Positions 1 to 51,544 of a DNA stretch of 51,948 nucleotides are shown piece after piece. The notes beneath the pieces were generated by a model that searched no databases, was not told where the DNA came from, and saw nothing but the letters and a program-made list of their open reading frames with translations. The DNA is from an uncultured Candidatus Saccharibacteria bacterium (lineage in GTDB: Bacteria > Patescibacteriota > Minisyncoccia > Phycocordibacterales > Phycocordibacteraceae): positions 1 through 51,948 of the forward strand of contig CAZWKU010000003.1 in the NCBI GenBank assembly GCA_964634595.1, in the 5' to 3' direction. The position numbers and the translations under genes are program-made. The stretch's first letter is position 1, and each line of letters opens with the position of its first letter.

Positions 1-307
1 TTTTCAATGAACTCATGGGCAACTGAAAAGCCCTCCTGCTTTGCGAGAGCACGCTCCCCCTCCACAGCCGCAAAAATCTGCCGAAGACTTGAGATCAATT
101 TTGCGCTCGATGACGCAAAAGGTCGGGCAGGAAAAGGAGAAAAAACAAAACGATCAGCAACAGTCGCTCAAAGGTGCGCTTGCGGGTGTCCTCACAAAAA
201 GTCCGCCACCAGCCACACACGAGCCAGCTCCCCCGCGAGCGAGAGAGGAGAAACCATTTGAAGTACCTGAAGAAAAGCTCAGGTCGGTTCTGCGGGGCGA
301 TGCGTAG
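1..307 (+). CDS. 3' end of a gene entering from the left, with an apparent 1-nt frameshift near 18-20; possibly the low-complexity C-terminal tail of a VirD4/TraD-like coupling ATPase
   Basis: Frame 3 reads FNELMGN* (stop 24-26). Frame 2 continues GQLKSPPALREHAPPP...KPFEVPEEKLRSVLRGDA* to 307. One extra G in the GGG run joins them. The family guess comes only from memory of similar CPR tails. Confidence 0.4.
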
Positions 308-312
308 CGCCT

Positions 313-1442
313 ATGGCAAAGTTTTTTGCGACCGTCGCCCTTGCACTTATGGTGCCGAGCTTTGCCGCTGGGGCAGGGCTTATTAATATTAATACTGCTG
401 ATGGCACTCTCCTCGATACCCTCCCAGGGATAGGGCTGGTAAAGGCGCAGGCTATTGTCGATTACCGTGAGTTGAACGGGCATTTTTGCGCATCGAGGAT
501 ATTCAAAACGTGAGCGGCATCGGCCCGGCTACCTATGCTGACATCGCGGCACTTATTACCGTGGGGTTAGTAGCCCCGCCGGTCACAGCCCCAGCTACTG
601 CTACGAGCACCGTGTCGGCATCTACTACACCCTCATCTGACATTGCTCAAAGTGGTGGGGTAGGGGGCGAGCCCGACTATCTGCCTATACCGAGGCTTCG
701 TATCGTGACGCACGCGCCGCGTGAGGTTATTGCGGGCGCAGACACCGTTTTTTCAGCCAGAGTTTTTGATGAGAATGGTCGGCTCCGTGACGATGCGCGT
801 GTCTCGTGGGTCTTTGGCGATGGGCGAGAGCAGAAGGGCGCGAGTGTTTACCACATTTTCTATGAGTCTGGTGAGTATGCTGTTTCTGTTTTCGCAACGA
901 CTGAATATGGCGGCGAGGCCGAGGCCGAATTCACCATCACCGCCCGCACCGCAGGAGTCTCAATAATCGCGAATGATGCGCGAGGTATTACGGTTGCACA
1001 TACCGGTACCACTGCGCTCGACCTTTCACGGTGGCGGCTCCGGGGCGGGGCAGGTGGGGAGTTTGTTATACCTGAGCGTACCCGTATTCTTGCAAACAAG
1101 AGTGTCACTTTTGCACCGCAAGTGACAGGCCTCTCTCCTTCGCCCGCCGCACTTCTCGTATATCCAAGTGGTGAAGTAGCGGCGATATATCCAGGCCCTG
1201 CCACGAAACCTTTAGCAGGCACTGAGCGTTCTAATAAAGTGCAGAGGGTTGAAACGGTTACTAAGATAAGCCCGAAGGCCTATGAAGAACCAGCAGTACT
1301 AGCCCCCACGACCACGGCTCTCGCCGCGGTCGCGGGGGCTCCCGTGCAAACTTCAAGTACCTCTCTACTTATCTCTCCGTGGACGCTTAGTTTTGCTCTC
1401 GTAGTGCTCGCGGGGGCGGCCGCGCTTCGTTTTTCTCGATGA
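313..1442 (+). CDS. comEA: ComEA-like helix-hairpin-helix DNA-binding protein with PKD-like and lamin-tail-like domains and a C-terminal TM anchor; split by a 1-nt frameshift at ~483-487
   Basis: Signal peptide, then ININTAD..LDTLPGIGLVKAQAIVDYRELNGHF in ORF 313-513. The HhH continues as RIEDIQNVSGIGPATYADI in ORF 486-1442; one more T in CATTTTTGCG restores the frame. PKD-like SWVFGDG..HIFYESGEY.V; hydrophobic C-terminus. Confidence 0.8.
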
Positions 1443-2596
1443 AACGCATACTCATTTTCTCTCTCGCATACTATCCGCATGTCGGCGGCGCTGAAGTCGC
1501 ACTCAAAGAGCTGACTGACCGCATGCCAGACATCGAGTGGCACATGCTCACGATGCAGTTTGGAGGGAGCCCGCACGTGGAGCGGGTAGGGAATGTCCAT
1601 GTCTACCGAATCGGTCCGCCAGCTGGCGGAGGCGGTTCGTACCTTTCAAAAATACTTTTCATACTGCGCGCCGCGAAAGCGGCGCGCGCCCTGCACCGTA
1701 CGCACCCTTTTGACGCCCTGTGGGCAATGATGACCTACATGATTTTTCCTGTTGTATTTGCAAATCTACGCATCCCTTACATCCTATCGCTTCAAGACGG
1801 CGATCCGTTTGAGCGGGTATTTCGACGCTGGTACATCCTCCCATTCTTACCACTCTTGCGAAGAGGGTTCCGTAAGGCCTCCGCAGTCACTGCGCTCTCG
1901 ACGTATCTTGCGGCATGGGCAAAAAAAATGGGATATCAAGGCGCAGTAGCCATAATACCCAATGGTGCTGATCTTGCGCGTTTTACTCCGCACGCTAATT
2001 CTATAGAGACTAGTGGCGTAGTAAACCTTGTCACCTCATCTCGTCTAGTGCACAAGAACGCGCTTGACGATGTAATTCGTGCTCTCGTGCTTCTCCCGAA
2101 AAATATTCATTTCATAATATACGGTTCAGGCAAAGAGGAGCAATCACTCAAAGAGTTGGCGCGAACCTTGAAAGTTTCTGAAAGGGTCTTGTTCAGGGGT
2201 TATGTCCCTCATGCTGAGTTAGCGCGCGCATTTGCCACGGCACACATTTTCATTCGCCCATCGCGTACTGAAGGATTTGGGGCCTCTTTTGTCGAGGCGA
2301 TGGCGGCGGGGCTCCCGGTCATCGCAACTCAAGAGGGAGGCGTTGCTGATTTTTTGTTCGACGAAAAACGAAACCCTGATAAACCCACAACAGGGTGGGC
2401 AGTCGACCCCGATGCGCCAGAGCAAATCGCGGATGCTGTAAAAGACATCATGACTAACCCAGACAAAGTCGCTCGCGTGAGAGACAGCGCTCTGGCGCTC
2501 GTACGCGAAAAGTACGATTGGGACATTATTGCGAAGCAAATGCACGCTCAATTTGAGGCCGTATTTACTCACGCGCACAACACCTTGACAAAGTAG
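1439..2596 (+). CDS. Glycosyltransferase family 4 (GT-B)
   Basis: YYPHVGGAE N-terminus; IPNGADL; FIRPSRTEGFGASFVEAMAAGLPVIAT. Confidence 0.92.
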   Translation: MKRILIFSLAYYPHVGGAEVALKELTDRMPDIEWHMLTMQFGGSPHVERVGNVHVYRIGPPAGGGGSYLSKILFILRAAKAARALHRTHPFDALWAMMTYMIFPVVFANLRIPYILSLQDGDPFERVFRRWYILPFLPLLRRGFRKASAVTALSTYLAAWAKKMGYQGAVAIIPNGADLARFTPHANSIETSGVVNLVTSSRLVHKNALDDVIRALVLLPKNIHFIIYGSGKEEQSLKELARTLKVSERVLFRGYVPHAELARAFATAHIFIRPSRTEGFGASFVEAMAAGLPVIATQEGGVADFLFDEKRNPDKPTTGWAVDPDAPEQIADAVKDIMTNPDKVARVRDSALALVREKYDWDIIAKQMHAQFEAVFTHAHNTLTK

Positions 2597-2613
2597 CCCA
2601 TAGGGTGTATACT
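2585..2613 (+). promoter_or_regulatory. Sigma70-type promoter for the orphan gene at 2772
   Basis: TTGACA (2585-2590), 17-bp spacer, TATACT (2608-2613). Confidence 0.8.
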
Positions 2614-2619
2614 ATATTA

Positions 2620-2771
2620 TAGTTCTTTGATAGCGTTACTGACTTCGCCACAGGATAGAGACGCTGATTATTTCGGCCTCTGTGCCCTGTGGTGAAAACC
2701 GCGGGTACGCAGAGCCTGCCTCGCACATTGGGTGTGGGGGTGGTACAGCGTACGCACACTAGGAGTGTGTG
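2620..2771 (+). promoter_or_regulatory. ~150-nt structured 5' leader (candidate cis-regulatory RNA)
   Basis: Hairpin A 2644-2696; mutually exclusive GAAA-capped hairpin B 2678-2714; GU-rich hairpin 2716-2743; hairpin 2753-2771 enclosing the AGGAG RBS. Confidence 0.55.
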
Positions 2772-3452
2772 ATGAAAAATGCAACTTACGACCAGATTAA
2801 GGACCTTGCCGTTCGCGTCTTAAACCTCAACAAGGGCAAACTCGACGGCGCGGCGTACGATCGCGGTACCCAGGGATTCTCGAACGAGGACGTCGCAAAC
2901 CGACTCATTGCATTCGTGAACAACGGCCTTTCTTTCATCATGAAAGGTCCGAGCGCGCTCATTATCGACCGCACCAGGTCTTTCAATCCGGTCACATTTT
3001 TCGGTAACGACTGGACGATATGGCGCGGGGCGAAAGAGAGCGATGGTCTTACGGGCGAAGAGGCTCAAGATGCCACCTCTCTCGCGCTCGCCGAGATCGA
3101 CTTTGCCAAGGCACTCTTCACAGTGTGCCTCAAAGAGGGCGAGACGACTATCACGGGCGAGGAGAAGCTTGTGCGGCATATCGCGGCGAAACACGTCCGC
3201 CTCGACGCAAGAGTTGGACAGTGTCTCTTTGAAGAAAAAGGTCAAGCGACCCTGGAATGGCTCTACCAGAACTTCGGCATAACCTGGTTCGAATTGCCTG
3301 GTACTGTTCTCCGCAACTCGGACGGCGATCGGTGCTTCCTCTATCTCTTTCGCAGCGGCGATGGTCGTTGGGGCTGGGACTGCTGCTGGCTCGACTATGT
3401 TCGGCGCGCCGGGGGCCTGTCTGCGGTTCTCGCAAGTAGCACTCAACCCTAA
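2772..3452 (+). CDS. Putative DGR variable (target) protein with CLec-like C-terminus
   Basis: AGGAG RBS at 2761-2765. C-terminus GTVLRNSDGDRCFLYLFRSGDGRWGWDCCWLDYVRRAGGLSAVLAS resembles CPR DGR target C-termini as I recall them. A-depleted NNY codons at 3312-3416. Confidence 0.7.
   Translation: MKNATYDQIKDLAVRVLNLNKGKLDGAAYDRGTQGFSNEDVANRLIAFVNNGLSFIMKGPSALIIDRTRSFNPVTFFGNDWTIWRGAKESDGLTGEEAQDATSLALAEIDFAKALFTVCLKEGETTITGEEKLVRHIAAKHVRLDARVGQCLFEEKGQATLEWLYQNFGITWFELPGTVLRNSDGDRCFLYLFRSGDGRWGWDCCWLDYVRRAGGLSAVLASSTQP
3312..3452 (+). other. Putative DGR variable region (VR)
   Basis: 28 of 35 codons in 3312-3416 end in C or T and none ends in A; only 10 A in 105 nt; invariant-looking TGG codons interleaved with GAC/TGC/GGC/TAT. 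Confidence 0.65.
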
Positions 3453-3494
3453 AACACTGTGCCCTAGTCCTTCCGACTTTTGCACTTTGCTCTC

Positions 3495-3519
3495 GGGCTC
3501 CGCATTTTCTGCGGAGCCC
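3495..3519 (+). terminator. Perfect 10-bp GC-rich hairpin: intrinsic terminator and/or DGR homing hairpin
   Basis: GGGCTCCGCA-TTTTC-TGCGGAGCCC followed by ATTTCTTTTAT, 42 nt after the stop codon. Confidence 0.7.
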
Positions 3520-3561
3520 ATTTCTTTTATACTGTCATTGGTAGTAGGCGAATCTGTTTAC

Positions 3562-3580
3562 AGCAAGGTTTAACCTTGCT
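3562..3580. repeat. 19-bp palindrome
   Basis: AGCAAGGTT-T-AACCTTGCT. Confidence 0.8.
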
Positions 3581-3701
3581 ACGAATACGAAACTAGGGAT
3601 GGTAAGCCAGAGGTTGTAACTTCATACACCGGTCTTTTGATGCAGGGGAATGCTCGCGAACTGCGGGCGATTCTTCTGCACAAGTGCGGTACTATCAAAC
3701 A

Positions 3702-5756
3702 ATGAAAGTTGTGATTGCGACTCCTCTCTACCCGCCCGAGATTGGCGGGCCTGCGACGTATACGGCGGTGCTAGAGCGAGAACTGCCAAAGCAAGGCGTT
3801 GAGGTAGAGGTGGTGAAGTTTGCTGATGCACGCCGCATGCCAAAGGTGATACGGCATCTTGCGTACTATCGCCTACTTTTAAAACGCGCAAAGAGTGCTG
3901 ATGTTATTTTTGCTCTTGACCCTGTCTCGGTGGGCCTGCCTGCCTATTGGGTAGCCAAAAAGCTCAAAAAGCCTTTAGTAGTAAAAGTGGTGGGCGATTA
4001 TGCGTGGGAGCAGGGGGTACAGCGCTTTGGTATTACCGCGTCGCTTGATGCGTTTGTGCGGGAGAGGCGCGCGCCCGTGGCGGTGCGGGTGTTGCGCGCG
4101 ATACAGACCCGCGTCGCGCGAAGCGCGACGCGCATTATTGTCCCCTCAGAGTACTTGCGCCACATTGTGAGCGCATGGGGCACGGTGGCTAACAAGGCAG
4201 GCACTGCACGACAAAAGATCGATGTGATATATAACGCAGTCCCGACGGAGCCTCCAGCACCTCTCACGACGGTGTTTGCGGACATGCCTCGCCCACGTAT
4301 CGTCTCGGTCGGTCGCCTCGTACCCTGGAAGGGTTTTGAAGGTCTTATCGATGCAGTGGCTGATCTTCGTGAAAAGGGTATACGCGCTTCGCTTGCCATT
4401 ATTGGTGATGGCCCCGATCGTGAGGCACTCAAGGGCTACCTGCGAGAGAGGCTGGGGATACATGGAGCTTGTTTGGCCGGATCTCTCTCACGTAGCGAGG
4501 TGCTTGCGGCTATAAAAAATGCAGACGTCTTCGCACTTAATTCTTCATACGAGGGCCTGTCACATGTACTTATTGAGGCGCTCGCACTTGGGGTACCTAT
4601 TGTTGCGACTCGTGCAGGCGGTAACAGTGAACTTATACAAGACGGAGTGAATGGGTTGCTGGTCCCCGTGGGTGACCCTGAAAGCCTTGCAGATGCTTTG
4701 AGCCGCGTCCTCACTGACAAGGCACTCTCGGCTAAACTTTCATTGGGAGCAAAACTATCGGCCCGGCGATTTGAGGAGCGCTCTATGATAGCGGCAACGA
4801 CCAAACTACTCACTGAAGTCGTTGCTGAGCAAAAGGCGCGGCGAGTGCTCATGATCAGTGGAGACTCAAAACTGCTAGTTGCGGGTACCGAGGCGGCAAA
4901 GCGTCTTGCGCTTCAGCGGGGTGCTGTTGAGCGTCTTGATGTCTTTGTGTGGCCACACACACATTCGTTTTTCGCAATACTACGCGCGGTACGCACTCAT
5001 GAGTACGACGTCATTACCGCGCAAGACCCTTTTTTGCGCGGCTTGCTTGCCTACGTTTTAACGCGTTTCTCTAAGGCCCGTTTCAATGTGCAGGTACATA
5101 CCGATCTTTCAGCGCAACCTTACTGGCGACACATTCTTGCTCATTTCTTACTACGTCGTGCTGATTCTATACGCGTGGTTACCGAGAAGGTTCGTGTACA
5201 GGTTGCACAGCATACTACGGCAACGCACATAACCGTGCTCCCGATTTTTACTGACATCTCACGCTTTACGCAGATAAAGCATCGCCCGCAGAAGTCTAAA
5301 AAGACCATTATGTGGATCGGTCGTTTCGAGGCTGAAAAAGATCCCCACAAAGCGCTTGCAGTCTTGCGCGAGGTGCGAGGTGCAGGAGTTGATGCTGTGC
5401 TGGTCATGCTCGGTGCCGGCTCCCTTGAACATTCGCTTGCACAAGCGGCGGCAGGGCTCCCGGTTGAGTTCCCCGGATGGGGAGACCCAGTTCAACATCT
5501 TGCCAAGGCAGACGTTGTCATAAGTACCTCAATGCATGAGAGCTATGGCGCGAGCATTATTGAAGCTCTTGCGGCAGGTGTGCCGGTGGTCTCTCTTGAC
5601 TATGGTATTGCACGCGAGGCAGGGGCGATCATCGCGTCAAAAACAGAGCTTGGCGCGCGCGTCATCGAAGTGCTTAAAACAAAAACGCGCGGCGAATTAA
5701 AACTCAAGGTACTCACCAAAGAGGAGTGGGTCGAGGTATGGCTCAAGTCACTATGA
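3702..5756 (+). CDS. Fusion of two GT4 glycosyltransferases
   Basis: MKVVIATPLYPPEIGGPATY...NSSYEGLSHVLIEALALGVP, then a second GT-B starting RRVLMISGD...SMHESYGASIIEALAAGVP; start moved to ATG 3702. Confidence 0.88.
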   Translation: MKVVIATPLYPPEIGGPATYTAVLERELPKQGVEVEVVKFADARRMPKVIRHLAYYRLLLKRAKSADVIFALDPVSVGLPAYWVAKKLKKPLVVKVVGDYAWEQGVQRFGITASLDAFVRERRAPVAVRVLRAIQTRVARSATRIIVPSEYLRHIVSAWGTVANKAGTARQKIDVIYNAVPTEPPAPLTTVFADMPRPRIVSVGRLVPWKGFEGLIDAVADLREKGIRASLAIIGDGPDREALKGYLRERLGIHGACLAGSLSRSEVLAAIKNADVFALNSSYEGLSHVLIEALALGVPIVATRAGGNSELIQDGVNGLLVPVGDPESLADALSRVLTDKALSAKLSLGAKLSARRFEERSMIAATTKLLTEVVAEQKARRVLMISGDSKLLVAGTEAAKRLALQRGAVERLDVFVWPHTHSFFAILRAVRTHEYDVITAQDPFLRGLLAYVLTRFSKARFNVQVHTDLSAQPYWRHILAHFLLRRADSIRVVTEKVRVQVAQHTTATHITVLPIFTDISRFTQIKHRPQKSKKTIMWIGRFEAEKDPHKALAVLREVRGAGVDAVLVMLGAGSLEHSLAQAAAGLPVEFPGWGDPVQHLAKADVVISTSMHESYGASIIEALAAGVPVVSLDYGIAREAGAIIASKTELGARVIEVLKTKTRGELKLKVLTKEEWVEVWLKSL

Positions 5757-6829
5757 AGCCGCTTTCGGTGTGCATGTTTGGTTTTAATGAGACCGAAGAG
5801 GGCGGACGACCGTGGATGATCAGAACAGGGCTTGAGGAGAACGGCGTCACGATCGTGCCGTGTCGTACAGGCGCAACGGGTATGCGGGCAAAATATCGTG
5901 AGCTCTACCGCCTTTGGCAGGGCGTAGGGCACGTTGACGCTCTCTATGTGGTCTTTCTTGGGTACTACCTTATGCCGCTCGCGTGGTATCTCGCGCGCGG
6001 CAGGGGGGCGCCTGTCATTCTTGATGCATTTATTTCGCTCTACGATACCGAGGTTAATGATCGTAAGCGGGTGAGGCCAGGCACTCCTCACGCGTGGTTC
6101 TTGTGGTGCGTTGATTGGCTCGCTTGTGCTCTCGCAGATGCAGTCGTCGTTGATACCCACGGTCACGGGGAGTATTTTGCGAAGCGTTATTTTGTACGAA
6201 AGGAGAAAATAATAGTGGCTCCCATTGGTTGCCGCTCTGATGTGTTTGTACCTCGTGCGAAGAGCAAGAATGCTGAGTTCACCATCGAATTTCATGGCAG
6301 GTTTATCCCGCTCCAGGGCATCGAGCATATCCTCGAAGCGGCACGTGCGTTGCAAGAGCGTGGTGAGCGCGTACGTTTTGAGATTATTGGTGACGGGCAG
6401 ACTTCCTCGCAGATGCAGGGCTTAGCGACCAAGCTCAAGCTTGCCAATGTACAATTTCTTGGTACCAAAAGTCATCGGGAGGTTGCAGAGGCTATCGCGC
6501 GAGCAGATATCTGTCTCGGCATTTTTGGCACTACTGAAAAAGCTCTGCGGGTAATACCTAATAAGGTGTATGAGTGTTTGAGCATGGGTAAGGCAGTAGT
6601 CACGGAGCGGTCGCCTGCGGCTCTCGAATATTTGCGAGATGGCGAAGAGGTTCGTATGGTGCCGCCTGGCGATGGCGAGGCACTTGCTGGTGCGATTATT
6701 GAACTCAAAAATGATCCGAACCTTCGCACGCAAATGGGGGCACGAGCGCGGGGGATAGCAGAAACTACCTTCTCTACTCGAGAGATTGTCAAAGACCTTA
6801 TTGCATGGATAGAGAGTCATCGAGTATGA
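5753..6829 (+). CDS. Glycosyltransferase family 4
   Basis: FHGRFIPLQGIEHI; CLGIFGTTEKALRVIPNKVYECLSMGKAVVT; ATGA overlap with the upstream stop. Confidence 0.9.
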   Translation: MKPLSVCMFGFNETEEGGRPWMIRTGLEENGVTIVPCRTGATGMRAKYRELYRLWQGVGHVDALYVVFLGYYLMPLAWYLARGRGAPVILDAFISLYDTEVNDRKRVRPGTPHAWFLWCVDWLACALADAVVVDTHGHGEYFAKRYFVRKEKIIVAPIGCRSDVFVPRAKSKNAEFTIEFHGRFIPLQGIEHILEAARALQERGERVRFEIIGDGQTSSQMQGLATKLKLANVQFLGTKSHREVAEAIARADICLGIFGTTEKALRVIPNKVYECLSMGKAVVTERSPAALEYLRDGEEVRMVPPGDGEALAGAIIELKNDPNLRTQMGARARGIAETTFSTREIVKDLIAWIESHRV

Positions 6830-7716
6830 AGCTCCTTATTTGTACACAAGCGGTCGATACGAACGACTCTGATCTTGGTTTTTTTGTGCGGTGGGTCGAG
6901 GAGTTTGCAAAACGGTGCGAGCAGGTTGAGGTACTGTGCTTACGGAGGGGCGAGGGTGTTTTACCTGCAAATGTCCATGTGCGGGTACTCCCGCGCGGGA
7001 GACTTTCTCGTGCGCTCGCCCTCCTTGGGTATGCAGTGCGCCTGCACAAACAGTATGACGTAGTGTTTGTGCACATGAATCCTGAGTACCTTGTTGTTAC
7101 GGGACTTTTGTGGCGGCTCCTGGGGAAAAAGATAGCGCTTTGGTATACCCACAAGAGTGTGACTCTGAAGCTTCGTATTGCGGTACTGTTTGCCCATGTT
7201 GTCTTTACCGCCTCAAAAGAGAGTTTTCGCTTGCGCACGAGTAGGGGGCAGGTTATGGGGCATGGCATCGACACAGATTTTTTCACTCCTGACCCGACCG
7301 TCTCGCGGGGCTCGTGGGCGCTCTCGGTAGGGCGGCTTATGAAGAGTAAGCGGCACGATCTTGCAATTCGCACTGCTGTCGCGGCAAACCGCGAGCTCCG
7401 TATTGCGGGTGAAGGCCCGGAGCGAAAACGTCTCGAAGCGCTGGCACGCGAGCTTACTGCGAGTGTGCATTTCTTGGGAGGCCTCACACAAGCGCAGTTG
7501 CGCGACGAGTATCGTCATGCCAATCACCTTATCCATACGAGTGAAACGGGCAGTCTCGACAAGGTGCTTCTTGAGGCGCTTGCGTGTGGGCTTGTGGTGA
7601 AGACGAATGACCCGGCGCTAACATTTCTTGAGCAACAGGGGCCTGAGTATGTGCGCGCTCACCACTCGCTCCCAAAACTCATTCGTGCCATAGTAGAAAC
7701 ACTCGATACGCTATGA
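6826..7716 (+). CDS. Glycosyltransferase family 4
   Basis: SVGRLMKSKRHD; HTSETGSLDKVLLEALACG; ATGA overlap. Confidence 0.88.
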   Translation: MKLLICTQAVDTNDSDLGFFVRWVEEFAKRCEQVEVLCLRRGEGVLPANVHVRVLPRGRLSRALALLGYAVRLHKQYDVVFVHMNPEYLVVTGLLWRLLGKKIALWYTHKSVTLKLRIAVLFAHVVFTASKESFRLRTSRGQVMGHGIDTDFFTPDPTVSRGSWALSVGRLMKSKRHDLAIRTAVAANRELRIAGEGPERKRLEALARELTASVHFLGGLTQAQLRDEYRHANHLIHTSETGSLDKVLLEALACGLVVKTNDPALTFLEQQGPEYVRAHHSLPKLIRAIVETLDTL

Positions 7717-8726
7717 GTCGCATTGTTTTTCTTTTTACGAACGATAAAAGCAAACTTATCGCCGATGTTAAAGGGGGGAGGGATGCCGACACTGCGCTCC
7801 ATGGTTTAAATCATGTCCCGGCAGCCGATTATCTTGTCGTTCACCCGACCGCTTTGAGTAGTCTTGCCTTTGTTCCCCGGCTCCTTACGTACGATTTTGT
7901 TCTGACCCAAGATCATCTTTTTCTTGGATACGTCGTATCTGCAGTGGCGCGTCTTTTGAGGAGAAAAACCAAGTGGCTCTACTTCACCATGACCGCCTCG
8001 ATCTTGGTGAAGAAGCACGCTAACCACTTTTGGCGTCTTGCGCTTCTCAAGCTCTTTTGGCGTAGCTACGCCTGCATTATCTGCATTACGTCTGAGCAGA
8101 AAAAAGATTTAATCGCATGCGGGGTTGCGCCTCGACGTCTTGTCTTTATCCCATTTCCGATCGATGCTAACTTTTTTACGAAGCTAAAAGCAACCGAGGA
8201 GGATTTTGTCGTTTCAGTCGGGAGAGACGCCGCTCGCGACTACCCAACCCTTATTCGGGCGGCCGAGCACACGCAAGAAAAAATCACCATTGCATGCGCG
8301 CCCCATAATATCCCTAGCGGTCTGTCCATACCAAGCAATGTCACTGTGCGCCACGACGCTGGCCTCGTAGAGGTTCGTGATTTATACGCGCGCTGTCGGT
8401 TGGTTACTGTCGTATCAAAAAACTTTAATGAGCCAGTCGGGTCGGATTGTTCTGGGCAGACCGTGATCCTTGAAGCCCTTGCGGTGGGGAAGCCAGTCAT
8501 CGCCACCTATCGCCCCTGGATAATTGACTACTTCATACCGGGAGAAGATTTGATAGTGGTAGAGCCTGGTAACCCCGAGGCGCTTGCAGAGGCGATTACT
8601 GCGCTTGCGCGAGACCCTGAGAAGCGCGCTCGACTTGCAGAGCGCGGTCGTGCAAAGGTGTTTGCGCACTACACCACCAAAATATTTACCGCGTCGCTCA
8701 CACGACTGCTCGAGACGCTCTCATGA
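7713..8726 (+). CDS. Glycosyltransferase family 4
   Basis: SVGRDAARDYPTL; SGQTVILEALAVGKPVIAT. Confidence 0.88.
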   Translation: MSRIVFLFTNDKSKLIADVKGGRDADTALHGLNHVPAADYLVVHPTALSSLAFVPRLLTYDFVLTQDHLFLGYVVSAVARLLRRKTKWLYFTMTASILVKKHANHFWRLALLKLFWRSYACIICITSEQKKDLIACGVAPRRLVFIPFPIDANFFTKLKATEEDFVVSVGRDAARDYPTLIRAAEHTQEKITIACAPHNIPSGLSIPSNVTVRHDAGLVEVRDLYARCRLVTVVSKNFNEPVGSDCSGQTVILEALAVGKPVIATYRPWIIDYFIPGEDLIVVEPGNPEALAEAITALARDPEKRARLAERGRAKVFAHYTTKIFTASLTRLLETLS

Positions 8727-9745
8727 TCCGTCTGCATATCCCAGAGCCGCTCCCTCGCATGCACCTGGCACCCTGGTTTACTCCCATACCAGAGAATATG
8801 ACGTATCAAGAGAATCTCCCACCGAATTTTTTTGAAACTGAAGTAGCGCGGGTGCATGAGGCACAGGCTGCGCAGGCTATAGTGCTCCCCAATAACTTTC
8901 GGGTGCCGCTTACCGAGAATGTGCAGGCACATATTGCGCACTACGCGGCTCTGGGGGAGAGGGTAGGCACACCCGTAGTTGTTTTTTCACTTGGCGACCT
9001 CGCCGACCGCATTAGCTTTGATCCGCGGGTGTGGGTACTGCGCTACTCACTCTATAAACACAGCGCGAGTGCGCGCGACATCAGTATGCCAAATGTCGTT
9101 GCGCATGATTGGGGGGCCGCTCCTGCGGTACGGACAAAAAATGCAAAACCGCGAGTCTCGTTTTGTGGTTTAGCGCTCCCGCCCGCTGGTCTTGCGCGCC
9201 TCAAGTACCATGCCAAGAATACGTGGTATCAGCTCGGCGCTCTCGCTCATCCTGCCCTGCGCGCGCGAAAATCGGGCATATATTGGCGCAGGCGCGCTTT
9301 AGACGCCTGCGCAAACTCCTCGCTCCTTGAGACCAACTTTATTATCCGCAGCACGTTTTCGGGTAATTCTAAGACCATCGAGCGTGACCCTACTATCGTG
9401 CGTCGCGAGTTTATTTCGAGCATCGCTGATGCTGATTTCGTACTTGCCCCCAAGGGCGATGGGAATTTCTCTAACCGATTTCTCGAAGCGCTTGCGCTCG
9501 GGCGCATACCGGTGCTCATTGACACTGATGTGGTCTTGCCGCTTGAGAGCGTCATTGATTATTCGAAAATCACCGTGCGGGTGCCAATGGGCGAGGTGCA
9601 GAAAACATCCGAGTATACTCGCGCCTTTTATGACTCGCTCTCAAACGAGGAGTGGCAAGCGCGCCAACGCCTTGCTCGCGCGACTTTCGAAAAGTACCTC
9701 CGCCAAGACGCCTTTCTTCGCCACTTCTTCACCACCGTTTTGTAA
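8723..9745 (+). CDS. Exostosin-like (GT47) glycosyltransferase
   Basis: FVLAPKGDGNFSNRFLEALALGRIPVLIDTDVVLPLESVIDY matches the GT47 F.L.P.G....S.R..EAL..G.IPV motif. Confidence 0.8.
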   Translation: MIRLHIPEPLPRMHLAPWFTPIPENMTYQENLPPNFFETEVARVHEAQAAQAIVLPNNFRVPLTENVQAHIAHYAALGERVGTPVVVFSLGDLADRISFDPRVWVLRYSLYKHSASARDISMPNVVAHDWGAAPAVRTKNAKPRVSFCGLALPPAGLARLKYHAKNTWYQLGALAHPALRARKSGIYWRRRALDACANSSLLETNFIIRSTFSGNSKTIERDPTIVRREFISSIADADFVLAPKGDGNFSNRFLEALALGRIPVLIDTDVVLPLESVIDYSKITVRVPMGEVQKTSEYTRAFYDSLSNEEWQARQRLARATFEKYLRQDAFLRHFFTTVL

Positions 9746-9804
9746 AACTAGGTACGCAAACACCCCTCACTTAATAACTGGTTTTCGTATATACTGTTCA
9801 AAAC

Positions 9805-10821
9805 ATGAAGGATAAGCGCACTTACTTTATTACGGGTGTAGCAGGTTTTTTGGGGAGCCATTTGGCTGATCGCTTTTTGGCCGACGGGCACCGGGTTATC
9901 GGGTGCGATAATTTGGTGGGGGGCTACCTCGACAATGTACCGCCCGGAGTTGAGCTACATACTGCGGATATGTGCGACCGCGCAAGAATGCTTGAGATCA
10001 TGCGTGGGGTGGATGTGGTGTATCACACCGCCGCTTACGCCTACGAGGGCCTCTCTGTTTTTTCTCCCTACCTGGTGTCAAACAATATTTTCGGAGGTAC
10101 TATTTCGGTAGTCTCGGCCGCCATTTCAAACAAGGTGAAGCGCTTCGTGCACTGCTCTTCAATGGCACGGTACGGTACTCAACCAACGACTCCTTTTCAT
10201 GAAGAAATGGCGTGCCTCCCGCAAGACCCCTACGGTATCGCTAAGTATGCAGCCGAGCTCGCGATACGCAACCTCTGCGAGGTGCATGGTATGGAGTTTG
10301 TGATTGCCGTGCCCCACAATATTATCGGCCCCCGCCAAAAATATGATGACCCATTTCGCAACGTGGCGTCCATCATGATTAACCTCATGCTCCAAGGTCG
10401 CCAGCCAATTATTTATGGCGATGGCGAGCAGATGCGAACCTTCTCTTTTATTGATGATGTGGTTGGTCCGCTCGAAAAAATGGCCACTGATCCTAAGGTA
10501 GCGGGCCACATTATCAACATCGGCCCAGATGACGAGTTTGTTACCATCAACAAGCTCGCAAAGATAATTGCCGAGCTTCTCGATTTCAAGCTCGCGCCAA
10601 TCTATATGCCGGGTCGCCCCCAGGAGGTCAAACATGCAACCTGTAGTGCTAACAAAGCGCGCGAGTTTCTCGATTATGAGCCCAAAACGCCGCTCAAGCA
10701 GGGGCTCCAGAGCATGATCGAGTATATTCGCACGCGAGGGGTAAAGCCGTTTCACTACCACCTCGAGCTCGAGATAGTAACTGACAAGACCCCGCGCACC
10801 TGGAAGGATCGCCTCTTTTAG
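9805..10821 (+). CDS. NAD-dependent nucleotide-sugar epimerase/dehydratase (extended SDR)
   Basis: [12 protein letters not shown]; YGIAK (YxxxK); HNIIGPRQ. Confidence 0.92.
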
Positions 10822-10822
10822 T

Positions 10823-11542
10823 ATGTACTTAGGTAAAAAAGTCAGCTTAGTCTTTCCGGTCTACAACGAAAAGGAGAATATTAAAAATGCCATTGAAGAG
10901 TTTTTGCGCCACCCAGCCGTCGACGAGGTTGTCGCCGTCGATAACAATTCAAATGATGGGAGTGACCGAGAGATCAGTAAGACTTCAGCACGATACGTAA
11001 AGGAAACGATACAAGGATACGGTGCGGCACTCCAGCGGGGTATGCGTGAGGCAACGGGCGACCTTATTGTTACCTGTGAGCCAGATGGCACTTTTCGCGC
11101 TCGCGACCTAGATAGGCTCCTCGTGTACAGCCAAGACTATGATGTGGTACTTGGTACACGCACCTCACGCAACCCGGTATGGGGTAGCGGAGACTCGGGC
11201 GTTAATATGGGTTTTATTATTCGCATCGGCAATTGGGCAGTCGCAAAGCTCCTCGAATATCTTTTTAATGGCCCTTCATTTACCGATGTGGGGTGCACCT
11301 ACAAACTTATTCATCGCATTGCCTATGAAAAGATCAAGAGCACCTTCACGGTTACGGGCAACTGGTTCTCGCCCGAATATATGATTCGGGTGTTGCAAAA
11401 CGATCTCTCGGTAGTCGAAATACCGGTTCAGTATGGTGCGCGCATTGGGACCTCAAAAATAACCGGCAAGCTCTCAAGTGCACTCAAGCTGGGGTTTCGC
11501 ATGATCTGGTTCATTGTGGTTGAGCGAGTCAGGTCATGGTAA
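10823..11542 (+). CDS. GT2 glycosyltransferase, probable polyprenyl-phosphate glycosyltransferase
   Basis: VFPVYNEKENI; VDNNSNDGS; QGYGAALQRG; TDVGCTYKL; EIPVQYGARIGTSKI. Confidence 0.88.
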   Translation: MYLGKKVSLVFPVYNEKENIKNAIEEFLRHPAVDEVVAVDNNSNDGSDREISKTSARYVKETIQGYGAALQRGMREATGDLIVTCEPDGTFRARDLDRLLVYSQDYDVVLGTRTSRNPVWGSGDSGVNMGFIIRIGNWAVAKLLEYLFNGPSFTDVGCTYKLIHRIAYEKIKSTFTVTGNWFSPEYMIRVLQNDLSVVEIPVQYGARIGTSKITGKLSSALKLGFRMIWFIVVERVRSW

Positions 11543-13284
11543 AGCCCTACACGGCTTTGGTAGTGATTGTTTTGATCCTCACCCTTTTACCTGCGTTCAG
11601 TATTTGGGTGCTTGTGGGTGATGCGTGGCTGGGTATTGTGCCCCCCTTTACTGACGAGGCTCTGTATCAGACGCGGGTACAGACAGTTGTGCATGGGCAT
11701 TTTTCAGGCGGCAACCCATACTTTCTTGAGCACACCGATGATCCGCCACTCGTGCTTTTTGGCGGGGCATGGCTCAATGCTGTTCCTCAGCTCCTTGGTC
11801 TCTCACTCATCCCTTCGCTTGCTCTCAATTTTGTCTTTTGGAGTTTACTTTTTGCGACTGCGGCATATTTCTTACTTCGTGAACTGCGTATATCCCCATG
11901 GCTCTCGGTCGCAACAACAGTATTTTTATATATAGAATCATATTCGCACATATGGCGCTCGGCGAATCTTCAGACGGTATACCCCTTTTATTTTTTATTT
12001 TATTTCGTACTCCTGCGGCTCATTCGTGAACCGAATCGTTTCAACATCGTATCTCTCGGTTTAATAACGGGCGTAACGTTTTATCTATTTACATTTCTCT
12101 GGCAGGTAGCCGTGGTTACGCTCGGGCTCTTATTTTTGTACGCGCTCGCACTTCGCAATTGGCCACTACTTAAAGCAACCTCTCTTACTGGTCTTGTAGG
12201 CGGTACGATAGGGTTGCCGGTGCCGCTCTATATATTTTGGCTTTCGCATGCTTCGCCCTATTTTTGGGAGAGCTTGGGGCGCCTCGGGCTTGTTAACACG
12301 CATTTACCCATGGCCGAGGTTATCTACTCGGGTGGGTGGATTGGCCTTACCCTCGCACTCCTCGCACTTCTGTGGTGGCGCATACCCTCGTTACGAGGAG
12401 ACCATGATGCACGTGTTGCTACCTCTTTTCTTTTCATCAGTGGGTTCGGCCTTTGGGTCATGCAGGGGAGCAATCTCATTACCGGCAAACTTACTGAGAC
12501 AGGGGAGCATATAAGCATTTTGCTCCAGCCATGGCTTGTTGTAGCTCTGGTAACTACGAGCATCCTCGCGTGGCAGTGGCGCGCCCATGTTGCGTTGCAG
12601 ATGCGATGGGTAGTTGGCGTGATACTCGCGATACTTCTTGGGGTAAGTGTGCACTATGCATACGATCGCTTCATTTATTTCTTGCCTCTCGAAGCGAATC
12701 GAGAGCCGTGGCAAACAGCACAGCTCTATGCAGGGCCGTATGCGTGGCTTGAAACGCACGAGCCAGAGCCAGTGGTGGTGTGGAGTAACCCTGGTCATTA
12801 TTTTGCAACAGTGCTCCCTCTCTGGACCAAGCATTTCACGCTCTTTGCATTTTGGGGCGTGTTGAACCTTATGCCCGAGGTAGAGGTACGTGAGCGGTAC
12901 CTCATCTCGCAATATTTTAATGACCCCACCGCTGAAGATTTGAAGCGCGATCTTGCAAAATACGCAGGGCGCGCAGAGGCATTTCATAACGCGAAAACGC
13001 TCGAGCGGGGCATTAAGATTTGCCGCATACGGTATGCGTGGAGCCCGACCCATGATTGTGGGACACCGCAAACCCCGGTTGAGCTTCTGGGCGATGAGTT
13101 TTTCGCGAAGCTCGAGAAGGCCTTTGCCACTGAAATCAAGCCAAACATCAAAAGATATCTTGCAAAATATCAGGTCAAGTATCTGTTGAGAGATAAAGTG
13201 CTCGATCTTGACTATAAGCCTCTTGCGCTCAAAGCCTCGCTCGTATACGAAGACGAGCGCTATGAGCTCTATCGCTTGCCATGA
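11536..13284 (+). CDS. Multi-pass membrane protein, GT-C-like, with C-terminal extracytoplasmic domain
   Basis: Many hydrophobic segments; acidic TDEALY in the first loop; lies next to GT2 and GtrA. Confidence 0.6.
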   Translation: MVKPYTALVVIVLILTLLPAFSIWVLVGDAWLGIVPPFTDEALYQTRVQTVVHGHFSGGNPYFLEHTDDPPLVLFGGAWLNAVPQLLGLSLIPSLALNFVFWSLLFATAAYFLLRELRISPWLSVATTVFLYIESYSHIWRSANLQTVYPFYFLFYFVLLRLIREPNRFNIVSLGLITGVTFYLFTFLWQVAVVTLGLLFLYALALRNWPLLKATSLTGLVGGTIGLPVPLYIFWLSHASPYFWESLGRLGLVNTHLPMAEVIYSGGWIGLTLALLALLWWRIPSLRGDHDARVATSFLFISGFGLWVMQGSNLITGKLTETGEHISILLQPWLVVALVTTSILAWQWRAHVALQMRWVVGVILAILLGVSVHYAYDRFIYFLPLEANREPWQTAQLYAGPYAWLETHEPEPVVVWSNPGHYFATVLPLWTKHFTLFAFWGVLNLMPEVEVRERYLISQYFNDPTAEDLKRDLAKYAGRAEAFHNAKTLERGIKICRIRYAWSPTHDCGTPQTPVELLGDEFFAKLEKAFATEIKPNIKRYLAKYQVKYLLRDKVLDLDYKPLALKASLVYEDERYELYRLP

Positions 13285-51088: not shown

Positions 51089-51163
51089 AAACAGGACAGT
51101 AAGAAGTAAACAGAAAACAGTAGACAGTATGCAAGAGAGAGAAAACAGCAAACAGAAAACGGT
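51089..51163 (+). repeat. Heptamer array, consensus ARACAGW
   Basis: aagaagt aaacaga aaacagt agacagt [atgcaag agagaga] aaacagc aaacaga aaacggt, in 7-nt phase from 51101. Confidence 0.85.
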
Positions 51164-51509
51164 GGGGAGGAGTGCTTTTTATGATCTGCTCGTTTGGCAA
51201 AAGGCTATGACGTTCACAAAAGAGATATATGTAATCACTAAACACTTGCCGAGCCACGAACAATTTGGTCTTATGAGTCAGTTGCAAAGAGCGGCAGTCT
51301 CTATACCGTCCAACATCGCCGAGGGGTCTAAACGTGGAAAAAAAGAATTTGTTCAGTTTCTTCGTATCGCGAATGCATCTGCTGCAGAGTGCGAAACACA
51401 ACTATTATTAGTTCGCGACATTTATGCAGTCGACATTTCGAAGACTCTCAATATTCTTTTAGAAGTTGAGCGAATGCTCGAATCGTTCATACGAAAAATC
51501 AGGCTGTAG
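51129..51509 (+). CDS. Four-helix-bundle protein (23S rRNA intervening-sequence protein family)
   Basis: DLLVWQKAM; EQFGLMSQLQRAAVSIPSNIAEG; EFVQFLRIANASAAECETQL. Confidence 0.92.
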   Translation: MQERENSKQKTVGRSAFYDLLVWQKAMTFTKEIYVITKHLPSHEQFGLMSQLQRAAVSIPSNIAEGSKRGKKEFVQFLRIANASAAECETQLLLVRDIYAVDISKTLNILLEVERMLESFIRKIRL

Positions 51510-51544
51510 ACTGTTTACTGTTTACTGTGTACTGTTAGCTGTTA
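51503..51544 (+). repeat. Heptamer array, reverse complement of the upstream array
   Basis: gctgtag actgttt actgttt actgtgt actgtta gctgtta. Confidence 0.9.

Follow-up and report, generated by a model that had tools for sequence, protein, structure and literature searches.

A target gene that has probably outlived its diversity-generating retroelement in a Parcubacterium

Background

When the 3' end of a gene carries the marks of a diversity-generating retroelement (DGR) and no such element lies beside it, is the gene still being diversified from elsewhere in the genome, or has its own element been lost? The question is raised by an open reading frame (ORF) at 2772-3452 of contig CAZWKU010000003.1, from an uncultured Candidatus Saccharibacteria bacterium (assembly GCA_964634595.1). 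The whole stretch of 51,948 bp that was analysed is referred to here as the window; related loci are designated by L numbers and related target proteins by P numbers. A preliminary description of the gene, made from the letters alone, had taken it for an orphan DGR target whose diversification is due to a distant DGR acting in trans.

The 3' end of the gene is, on sequence comparison with its relatives, a genuine DGR variable region (VR) at the C-terminus of a target protein. The gene as it now stands is probably a fossil: the cassette that once lay in cis would have been deleted, the VR would no longer be rewritten and one variant would have been fixed. In the intact relatives, the reverse transcriptase (RT) would copy the RNA of a template repeat (TR) with errors at adenines and the resulting cDNA would replace the VR; such mutagenic homing would rewrite some 17 codons, which map to one face of the C-terminal domain. 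In the window, a deletion of about 1.5 kb would have taken most of the leader that precedes the TR, the TR itself, avd and the RT gene except for its last ~35 codons. The target gene would have been left intact, with a VR that keeps the scars of adenine mutagenesis in its A-poor NNY codons while the rewriting that made them has stopped.

Variable region and template repeats

Composition sets the 3' end of the gene apart. Between 3312 and 3416, in frame with the ORF, 28 of the 35 codons are NNY, none ends in A and only 10 of the 105 bases are A, exactly the counts given in the preliminary description. A background for these figures was taken from the 42 other gene-like ORFs of the window, which yield 15,106 segments of 35 codons. 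The number of A in these segments averages 24.0 +/- 5.5 with a minimum of 10, and 10 or fewer are found in 0.04%. At least 28 NNY codons are present in 0.26% of the segments and NNA codons are absent from 0.13%; not one of the 15,106 segments combines all three features.

The origin of this composition is evident from the related loci. TRs were sought with an adenine-tolerant scan, in which a position matches if the bases are equal or if the candidate base is A. A TR is located 450-515 nucleotides (nt) downstream of the VR in five distinct relatives, and the mismatches within each TR/VR pair fall almost entirely at TR adenines: 14 at adenines and no other in L003 (P0038), 16 and none in L014, which is the same as L019 (GW2011_GWA1_54_9 / GWB1_55_9), 17 and none in L025, 17 and one in L024, and 16 and one in L034 (P0049, the protein of which is 69% identical to that of the window). 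TRs are also present in L036, L037 and L039. The window VR aligns base for base with the TRs of its relatives. Against the L014 TR, 25 of its 34 differences are at TR adenines (p = 7e-8), and against the L034 TR this is so for 21 of 37. The homology of TR and VR ends at ...CTCGCAA, and the 3' end of the window VR (TCTGCGGTTCTCGCAA) is almost identical to the TR and VR ends of other family members. These pairs bear out the earlier claim of a DGR VR at the C-terminus of a protein without a signal peptide. Even the TR that had been predicted from the VR alone comes close to the real ones, that of L034 reading ...CGC AAC TCG GAC GGC AAT CGG TAC...TGG AAC TGG AAC TAC AAC TGG CTT...TCT GCG GTG CTC GCA.

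The same region is where the proteins vary. There are 17 hypervariable codons in the VR, located inside 3315-3416. Their third positions remain C or T and their substitution spectrum fits AAY (and AAG) template codons, with two further positions, 199 and 214, having the spectrum expected from an AAG template codon. Lys, Glu, Gln, Met and Trp together make up 3.3% of the residues at the 17 variable positions in the family alignment, compared to 22.6% in residues 1-175. Within each of seven clusters formed at 90% identity (1-6 and 9), the first ~175 residues are identical or have at most five scattered differences, and the changes concentrate at VR positions. The region is therefore settled as hypervariable at the level of the family.

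An A-poor, NNY-rich stretch might also arise as an accident of composition in a C-terminal domain rich in Trp, Gly, Cys and Asp, unrelated to any DGR. The lack of a TR in the window would fit this, as would the NNY bias of the gene as a whole, in which 16-30 of every 35 codons are of this kind. Such an accident does not explain, however, why the orthologous regions of the relatives pair with TRs through adenine-only mismatches, why cluster members differ there only, why the spectrum at the variable positions fits AAY and AAG mutagenesis, or why remnants of an RT gene and a leader lie downstream. The TR/VR pairs in L003, L014, L024, L025 and L034 refute the accident, which is scarcely credible.

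Remnants of the cassette

The DGR cassette has a fixed order in the intact relatives (Table 1). The target gene with its 3' VR is followed by a terminator hairpin, a promoter, a structured leader of ~210 nt, the 133-nt TR, another hairpin, the gene for bAvd on the opposite strand and then that for the DGR reverse transcriptase (RVT_1). Most of this is missing from the window. No TR was found on either strand by a repeat search and the adenine-tolerant scan, tblastn with related RT and Avd sequences found neither in the window, and an RT profile compared with the six-frame translation of the window gave a short C-terminal remnant as its only RT signal. The observation that the window has no RT and no second copy of the VR thus held in each of these searches.

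Two remnants lie between the target gene and the next gene, in a spacer of 250 nt. The first opens with GGTAGTAGGCGAATC, continues into a hairpin with a compensated stem and ends with CGAATAC. Alignment with intact leaders identifies it as the beginning of the pre-TR leader with the first helix; what should come 3' of that, the TR included, is gone. The TATACT sequence 6 nt upstream corresponds in position to the TATAAT-like boxes found upstream of GGTAGTAGG in L003, L014, L032, L034 and L011, and would be the -10 box of the former TR-RNA promoter.

The second remnant is the C-terminal end of an RT gene. A profile was built from 120 related RTs, of more than 8,000 matches, and compared with the six-frame translation of the window and of the remaining loci without a cassette, 7,280 segments in all. 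The best match in the window is the segment at 3598-3705, which corresponds to profile positions 314-341 of 347 (E = 0.0017). The sole better match overall is the equivalent remnant in L018, directly after the target gene (E = 1.1e-6). In the window, the stop codon of the RT remnant overlaps the ATG (3702) of the next gene, which encodes a GT4 glycosyltransferase. The two remnants are in the expected order, strand and place, and in L014 coordinates the missing piece extends from ~2372 to ~3925, about 1.5 kb that would have contained the remaining leader together with the TR, avd and residues 1 to ~346 of the RT. The presence of a leader stub and an RT C-terminus directly downstream of the gene therefore argues that the cognate cassette was in cis and has since been deleted.

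The gap could in principle have been made by the assembler, if it collapsed the near-repeat of VR and TR and skipped the DNA between them. Metagenome assemblies are often broken or wrongly joined at VR/TR repeats and by variation within populations, and many contigs of this family are just ~1 kb in length. The junction is not at the VR/TR repeat, however. The sequence runs on past the VR through its 3' flank, the terminator, the promoter and 53 nt of the leader before it breaks off, and it picks up again within the 3' end of the RT gene. The same junction is found in an independent assembly (L004), with 99.99% identity over 11.9 kb, which argues against an assembly artefact, and there are similar but different junctions in L018, L011 and L033. 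An artefact of assembly or binning is thus very improbable.

Table 1. Coordinates of the features in the window and in related loci
Feature	Locus	Position	Strand	Remarks
Target gene promoter, sigma-70-type	window	2585-2613	+	TTGACA-17-TATACT, 11/12 positions match; same place in related loci
Target gene 5' untranslated leader	window	2620-2771	+	~150 nt; conserved and structured in 12 loci
DGR target (variable protein) gene	window	2772-3452	+	226 aa; no signal peptide
VR	window	3303-3435	+	133 nt, codons 178-222; aligns with TR/VR homology blocks of relatives
Intrinsic terminator of target gene	window	3495-3528	+	10-bp GC-rich hairpin (3495-3519) and T-run
Putative -10 box of former TR-RNA promoter	window	3528-3533	+	TATACT; 6 nt upstream of leader stub
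Pre-TR leader stub	window	3540-3592	+	GGTAGTAGGCGAAT, first hairpin, CGAATAC; aligned with intact leaders
DGR RT gene remnant	window	3598-3705	+	last ~35 codons (DGKPEVVTSYTGLLMQGNARELRAILLHKCGTIKQ); stop TGA 3703-3705
Target gene	L014	1551-2207		followed by terminator hairpin and promoter
Structured leader	L014	starts 2323
TR	L014	2523-2655		followed by hairpin
bAvd	L014	2680-3072	-	PF22296; PHROG 'Avd protein of DGR'
RT	L014	2886-4037		RVT_1, YADD motif
Pre-TR RNA domain	L014	2323-2525
Pre-TR RNA domain	L034	1374-1598
Pre-TR RNA domain	L024	1457-1680
Pre-TR RNA domain	L025	3923-4174
Pre-TR RNA domain	L003	10785-11042
Pre-TR RNA domain	L039	6745-6967
Pre-TR RNA domain	L037	1011-1231
Pre-TR RNA domain	L036	2372-2587
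Leader and TR without avd and RT	L039	6745-7882		RNase HI gene in place
Split RT gene	L035	3981-5065
Split RT gene	L036	3064-4139
Split RT gene	L037	1519-2810
Split RT gene	L038	1610-2757
Avd and RT ORF	L003	402-2159	- (Avd)	RT with long N-terminal extension
Target gene (P0038), then leader and TR	L003	10001-11123		at contig end
Target 3' end fused to 3' flank of TR	L022	10480-10610		same sequence in L023

Loss of the cassette in related loci

The window is one member of a graded series. The cassette is intact in L014/L019, L025 and L034, with L024 and L003 cut by the ends of their contigs. The RT gene is split by a frameshift in L035/L036 (P0067) and L037/L038 (P0033). In L039 the leader and TR are kept, avd and RT are gone and an RNase HI gene is in their place. 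An RT 3' stub is what remains in the window and L018, a leader stub only is found in L011 (P0057, followed by secD) and L033 (P0004, followed by rplJ), and nothing is left in L006/L007 (P0007, Kaiserbacteria metagenome-assembled genomes (MAGs)). The copies without a cassette are in differing contexts (a GT4 cluster, folD-secD and Wzy-rplJ), and the cassette has thus been lost more than once. The deletion scars and the series together document the repeated loss of the retroelement with the diversified gene kept.

The split RT genes belong to cassettes that are otherwise complete, were each found in two independent assemblies, and are either pseudogenes or made by frameshifting. A different arrangement is present in L022, in L023 and in P0040, where the 3' end of the target gene is fused to the 3' flank of a TR (..GCAACTCTCTTCATTTC.. 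and the TR hairpin). The protein encoded by this fused gene has the tail ATLFIS.., and there is no RT nearby. Such fusions suggest that recombination between VR and TR is one route of deletion.

In L003, Avd and RT are located 8 kb upstream of the target gene for P0038, which is followed by a leader and TR of its own; either one cassette is split here or there are two. The annotation of GW2011_GWA1_54_9 includes a second RT, and the genomes of the relatives can therefore encode more than one DGR RT.

Variation of the VR can be set beside the integrity of the cassette across the clusters. In cluster 7 the RT is frameshifted and the VR does not vary, in cluster 9 the RT is split and the variation is mosaic, and cluster 6 includes mixed contexts. 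A link between the two is suggestive, the pattern not being clean.

Present state of the variable region

With the local cassette lost, the VR would be either frozen or served from another site. The window protein is the sole member of its own cluster at 90% identity, its nearest relative being 69% identical. Since variants of the VR would share more than 90% identity with the window protein, the single-member cluster counts in favour of a frozen VR, and no VR variants of this protein are present in a collection of 15 billion proteins. The protein and its VR are identical in three assemblies, that of the window and two others, while a neighbouring gene has a single-nucleotide polymorphism. Contigs k141_1023524 and k141_325680 of the ENA assemblies ERZ27247828 and ERZ27247830 have this locus too. 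Other proteins encoded by cassette-less loci are likewise invariant between assemblies, P0007 in 5 contigs and P0057 in 9. A scaffold-pattern scan of the GTDB representative genomes, a set that the genome of the window lies outside, found the P0007 MAG to have a VR and no TR. A compatible TR is presumably absent from the rest of the genome of the window as well.

The alternative is that the VR is a remote target, still diversified from another site in the genome by a DGR with a similar TR, and that the local cassette, being redundant, was lost. The ORF, the terminator hairpin and the spacer after the VR are intact, as this would have it. The near-identity of the VR 3' ends means that a paralogous cassette could in principle home into the window VR, more than one DGR RT can be encoded by the genomes of the relatives, and remote targets have been documented in other lineages, for example in Treponema, Legionella and cyanobacteria (PMC5758913). 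Weighing on the other side, there is no TR or RT within 52 kb, the remnants show that the cognate cassette was local, the VR is without variants and the same in all three assemblies, and a TR with this scaffold pattern is lacking from the MAG of P0007, a related orphan. A remote target of this kind is given a modest chance. The trans-diversification by a distant DGR that had been proposed at first is for the same reasons not favoured: a leader stub and an RT end lie next to the gene, and its VR appears invariant. It is also rather unlikely that the orphan VR came to be rewritten in trans after the loss of the cassette, with one retroelement serving several dispersed copies of a leader-RNA-controlled, cytoplasmic ligand-binding protein.

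A frozen VR remains the preferred reading, and a number of observations weigh against it. The search for a TR covered the 52-kb window, so that a compatible TR elsewhere in the genome is possible in a group whose members can have two DGR RTs. That three assemblies have the same VR was established by exact-sequence look-ups, which are biased to identical matches, in samples that are probably related, which makes it weak evidence of stasis. VR variants exist in cluster 6 alongside the cassette-less locus L011. P0033, which has a cassette in cis with a frameshifted RT, is also without VR variation and is identical in 18 contigs; an invariant VR is therefore no specific sign that the TR has been lost. 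Members of the family have nearly the same VR 3' end. The RT remnant is itself short, and its E-value of 0.0017 is convincing mainly through its position and the parallel case of L018. None of the long contigs of the orphan relatives (469, 288, 100 and 62 kb) is among the 120 RT homologs listed of more than 8,000, which is uninformative for either reading.

Target protein and its family

The target protein has a helical N-terminal part, followed by a C-terminal alpha/beta domain that bears the VR. Single-sequence and profile searches returned zero sequence matches in Pfam, NCBIfam, PHROG and PDB. There are 46 homologous clusters, the sources of which name Kaiserbacteria, Parcubacteria or Patescibacteria. 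The protein is thus, as judged by homology, a member of a DGR target family specific to Parcubacteria and Kaiserbacteria with at least 47 clusters. Residues 60-175 are well conserved in the family alignment, and the C-terminal scaffold, LRx-SxGxRxFLxLxRxxxGxWxWxxxWLxxxRxAxxPSAVLAS, is broken by the 17 hypervariable positions. The protein is probably cytoplasmic, because neither a signal peptide nor a hydrophobic segment was found in it. A ligand-binding role would follow by analogy with the DGR paradigm. This delimits a previously unannotated protein family, probably cytoplasmic and without a Pfam family.

AlphaFold models of the protein are confident, with a predicted local distance difference test (pLDDT) score of 91.7 for the whole chain and of 95.1 for residues 60-226, the latter with a predicted template modelling (pTM) score of 0.90. 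In the modelled C-terminal domain, two long helices pack against a four-stranded antiparallel sheet built by the VR. A Foldseek search with the model gave no significant match and retrieved no DGR variable protein of known structure. The only alignments over the full domain are to C-type lectin (CLec) domains, all below threshold. They are BDCA2 (3wbr; E 0.23, probability 0.47, template modelling score 0.35-0.44), CRD-4 of the mannose receptor and, in BFVD, a C-type lectin protein of a herpesvirus (E 0.21). The model weakly suggests a CLec-like fold, which is plausible because the best full-domain matches, though non-significant, are C-type lectins.

The target gene is flanked by GT4 glycosyltransferase genes. 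The cluster around it, at 60-12005 of the window (the stretch shared with L004), contains at least seven glycosyltransferase genes and one gene for an NAD-dependent epimerase, and sits downstream of a ComEA-like/PKD protein. The target genes of the relatives are in unrelated contexts (folD-secD, Wzy-rplJ and type IV pilus genes), and the glycan context is therefore probably incidental.

Elsewhere in the window there is an inverted repeat of 32 nt at 51096-51127 and 51504-51535, with arms 376 nt apart that are 81% complementary. It consists of an A-rich motif of the ACAG(T/A)A type and gave spurious 'A-tolerant' TR matches.

Promoter, RNA leaders and terminator

The target gene has its own promoter and a structured leader, as had been proposed; the promoter matches at 11 of 12 positions and the leader is conserved in 12 related loci (window, L006, L011, L014, L015, L016, L018, L021, L032, L033, L034 and L037). 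The leader is predicted to fold into two stem-loop domains and a small hairpin, the loop of which contains the Shine-Dalgarno sequence. Nine of its 41 predicted pairs have compensatory changes. Conservation of this 5' untranslated region exceeds that of much of the coding region, and a search of Rfam with it gave no match. The leader may be an undescribed cis-regulatory RNA.

A second structured RNA domain, of ~200-250 nt, is present in the DGRs of the family between a dedicated promoter and the TR. Across 8 loci it has 61 predicted pairs, 27 of which show compensatory changes. An Rfam search of the cassettes of the relatives and of the post-VR region found nothing relevant, and this pre-TR leader is absent from Rfam. 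It is possibly a domain by which RT-Avd recognises the template RNA, and could bear on how template RNA is recognised in such systems.

The perfect 10-bp GC hairpin described after the stop codon is present, 43-67 nt past that codon and 60 nt beyond the end of the TR homology. It has a 5-nt loop and a dG of -20.3 kcal/mol and is followed by ATTTCTTTT, and a terminator scan scores it as an intrinsic terminator. An equivalent hairpin of different sequence is found in every related locus, with or without a cassette. A role as DGR homing element finds no support in its distance from the TR homology, the T-run that follows it or its change of sequence between family members; it would most simply be the terminator of the target gene. 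A sub-threshold match to suhB/mmgR in Rfam at 3460-3534 is merely this terminator hairpin.

Comparison with known systems

DGRs are abundant in bacteria of the candidate phyla radiation (CPR); their VRs often cannot be classified ('UVR' classes) (PMC5758913). The groundwater 'CPR set' (Wu et al. 2018, PMC5758913; Paul et al. 2017 cited there) comes from the same group of hosts as the family described here, the relatives of the window being GW2011 Parcubacteria and Kaiserbacteria. As in those DGRs, there is a single small target without recognisable domains, the VR cannot be assigned by sequence to CLec1-3 or Ig, and the family has bAvd, an RT of the DGR clade and adenine-specific TR/VR mismatches. 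Unlike them, the copy in the window has lost its TR, avd and nearly all of its RT.

The family shares with the DGR of Bordetella phage BPP-1 (Mtd/TR/Avd/bRT) the logic of mutagenic retrohoming, a target with the VR at its 3' end, a TR with AAY codons and the presence of Avd and RT. It differs in that its target is cellular rather than a phage tail fibre, avd is on the opposite strand, and a promoter of its own and a structured leader of ~210 nt come before the TR, with a hairpin directly after it. The hairpin after the VR is also unlike that of BPP-1, being terminator-like and 60 nt beyond the TR homology, and from the model a CLec fold is weakly suggested only.

Remote DGR targets have been documented, mainly in another RT lineage (PMC5758913), and the survey in PMC8144416 notes that its own approach would miss them. 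The window resembles such targets (the TvpA paralogs of Treponema, the lineage-4 DGRs of PMC5758913 and those of cyanobacteria, PMC7517822) in having a VR-bearing gene far from any RT. What defines a remote target, however, is that a matching TR lies at another place in its genome, and the local remnants in the window argue for a former cis arrangement. A DGR VR can thus be recognised from raw sequence alone, and an orphan VR need not mean diversification in trans.

The closest parallels are in isolates of Treponema denticola, in which target genes were left after loss of the RT and TR (PMC4891356), and in cyanobacteria, for which leftover targets have been inferred and removal of the diversifier suggested once a good variant had been selected (PMC7517822). 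In T. denticola and in the cyanobacterial paralogs, as here, the targets are intact, the differences between VR and TR are mostly at TR adenines and the RT and TR are missing, and these leftovers too have been explained by one variant becoming fixed once the diversifier was lost. Like the window's protein, the cyanobacterial variable proteins are mostly predicted to be cytosolic (PMC7517822), whereas the Treponema targets are lipoproteins. A fossil target left after loss of its retroelement is therefore a situation already known in other bacteria. What sets the window apart from those leftovers is the deletion scars beside the gene (the leader stub and the RT 3' end), the graded series of decay in its relatives and a host that is a Parcubacterium with a reduced genome. 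What is new here is limited to the visible scars, the series in Parcubacteria and two conserved RNAs absent from Rfam. In the scars and the series, the 'diversify, then fix' scenario proposed for Treponema and cyanobacteria is met with in reduced-genome Parcubacteria.

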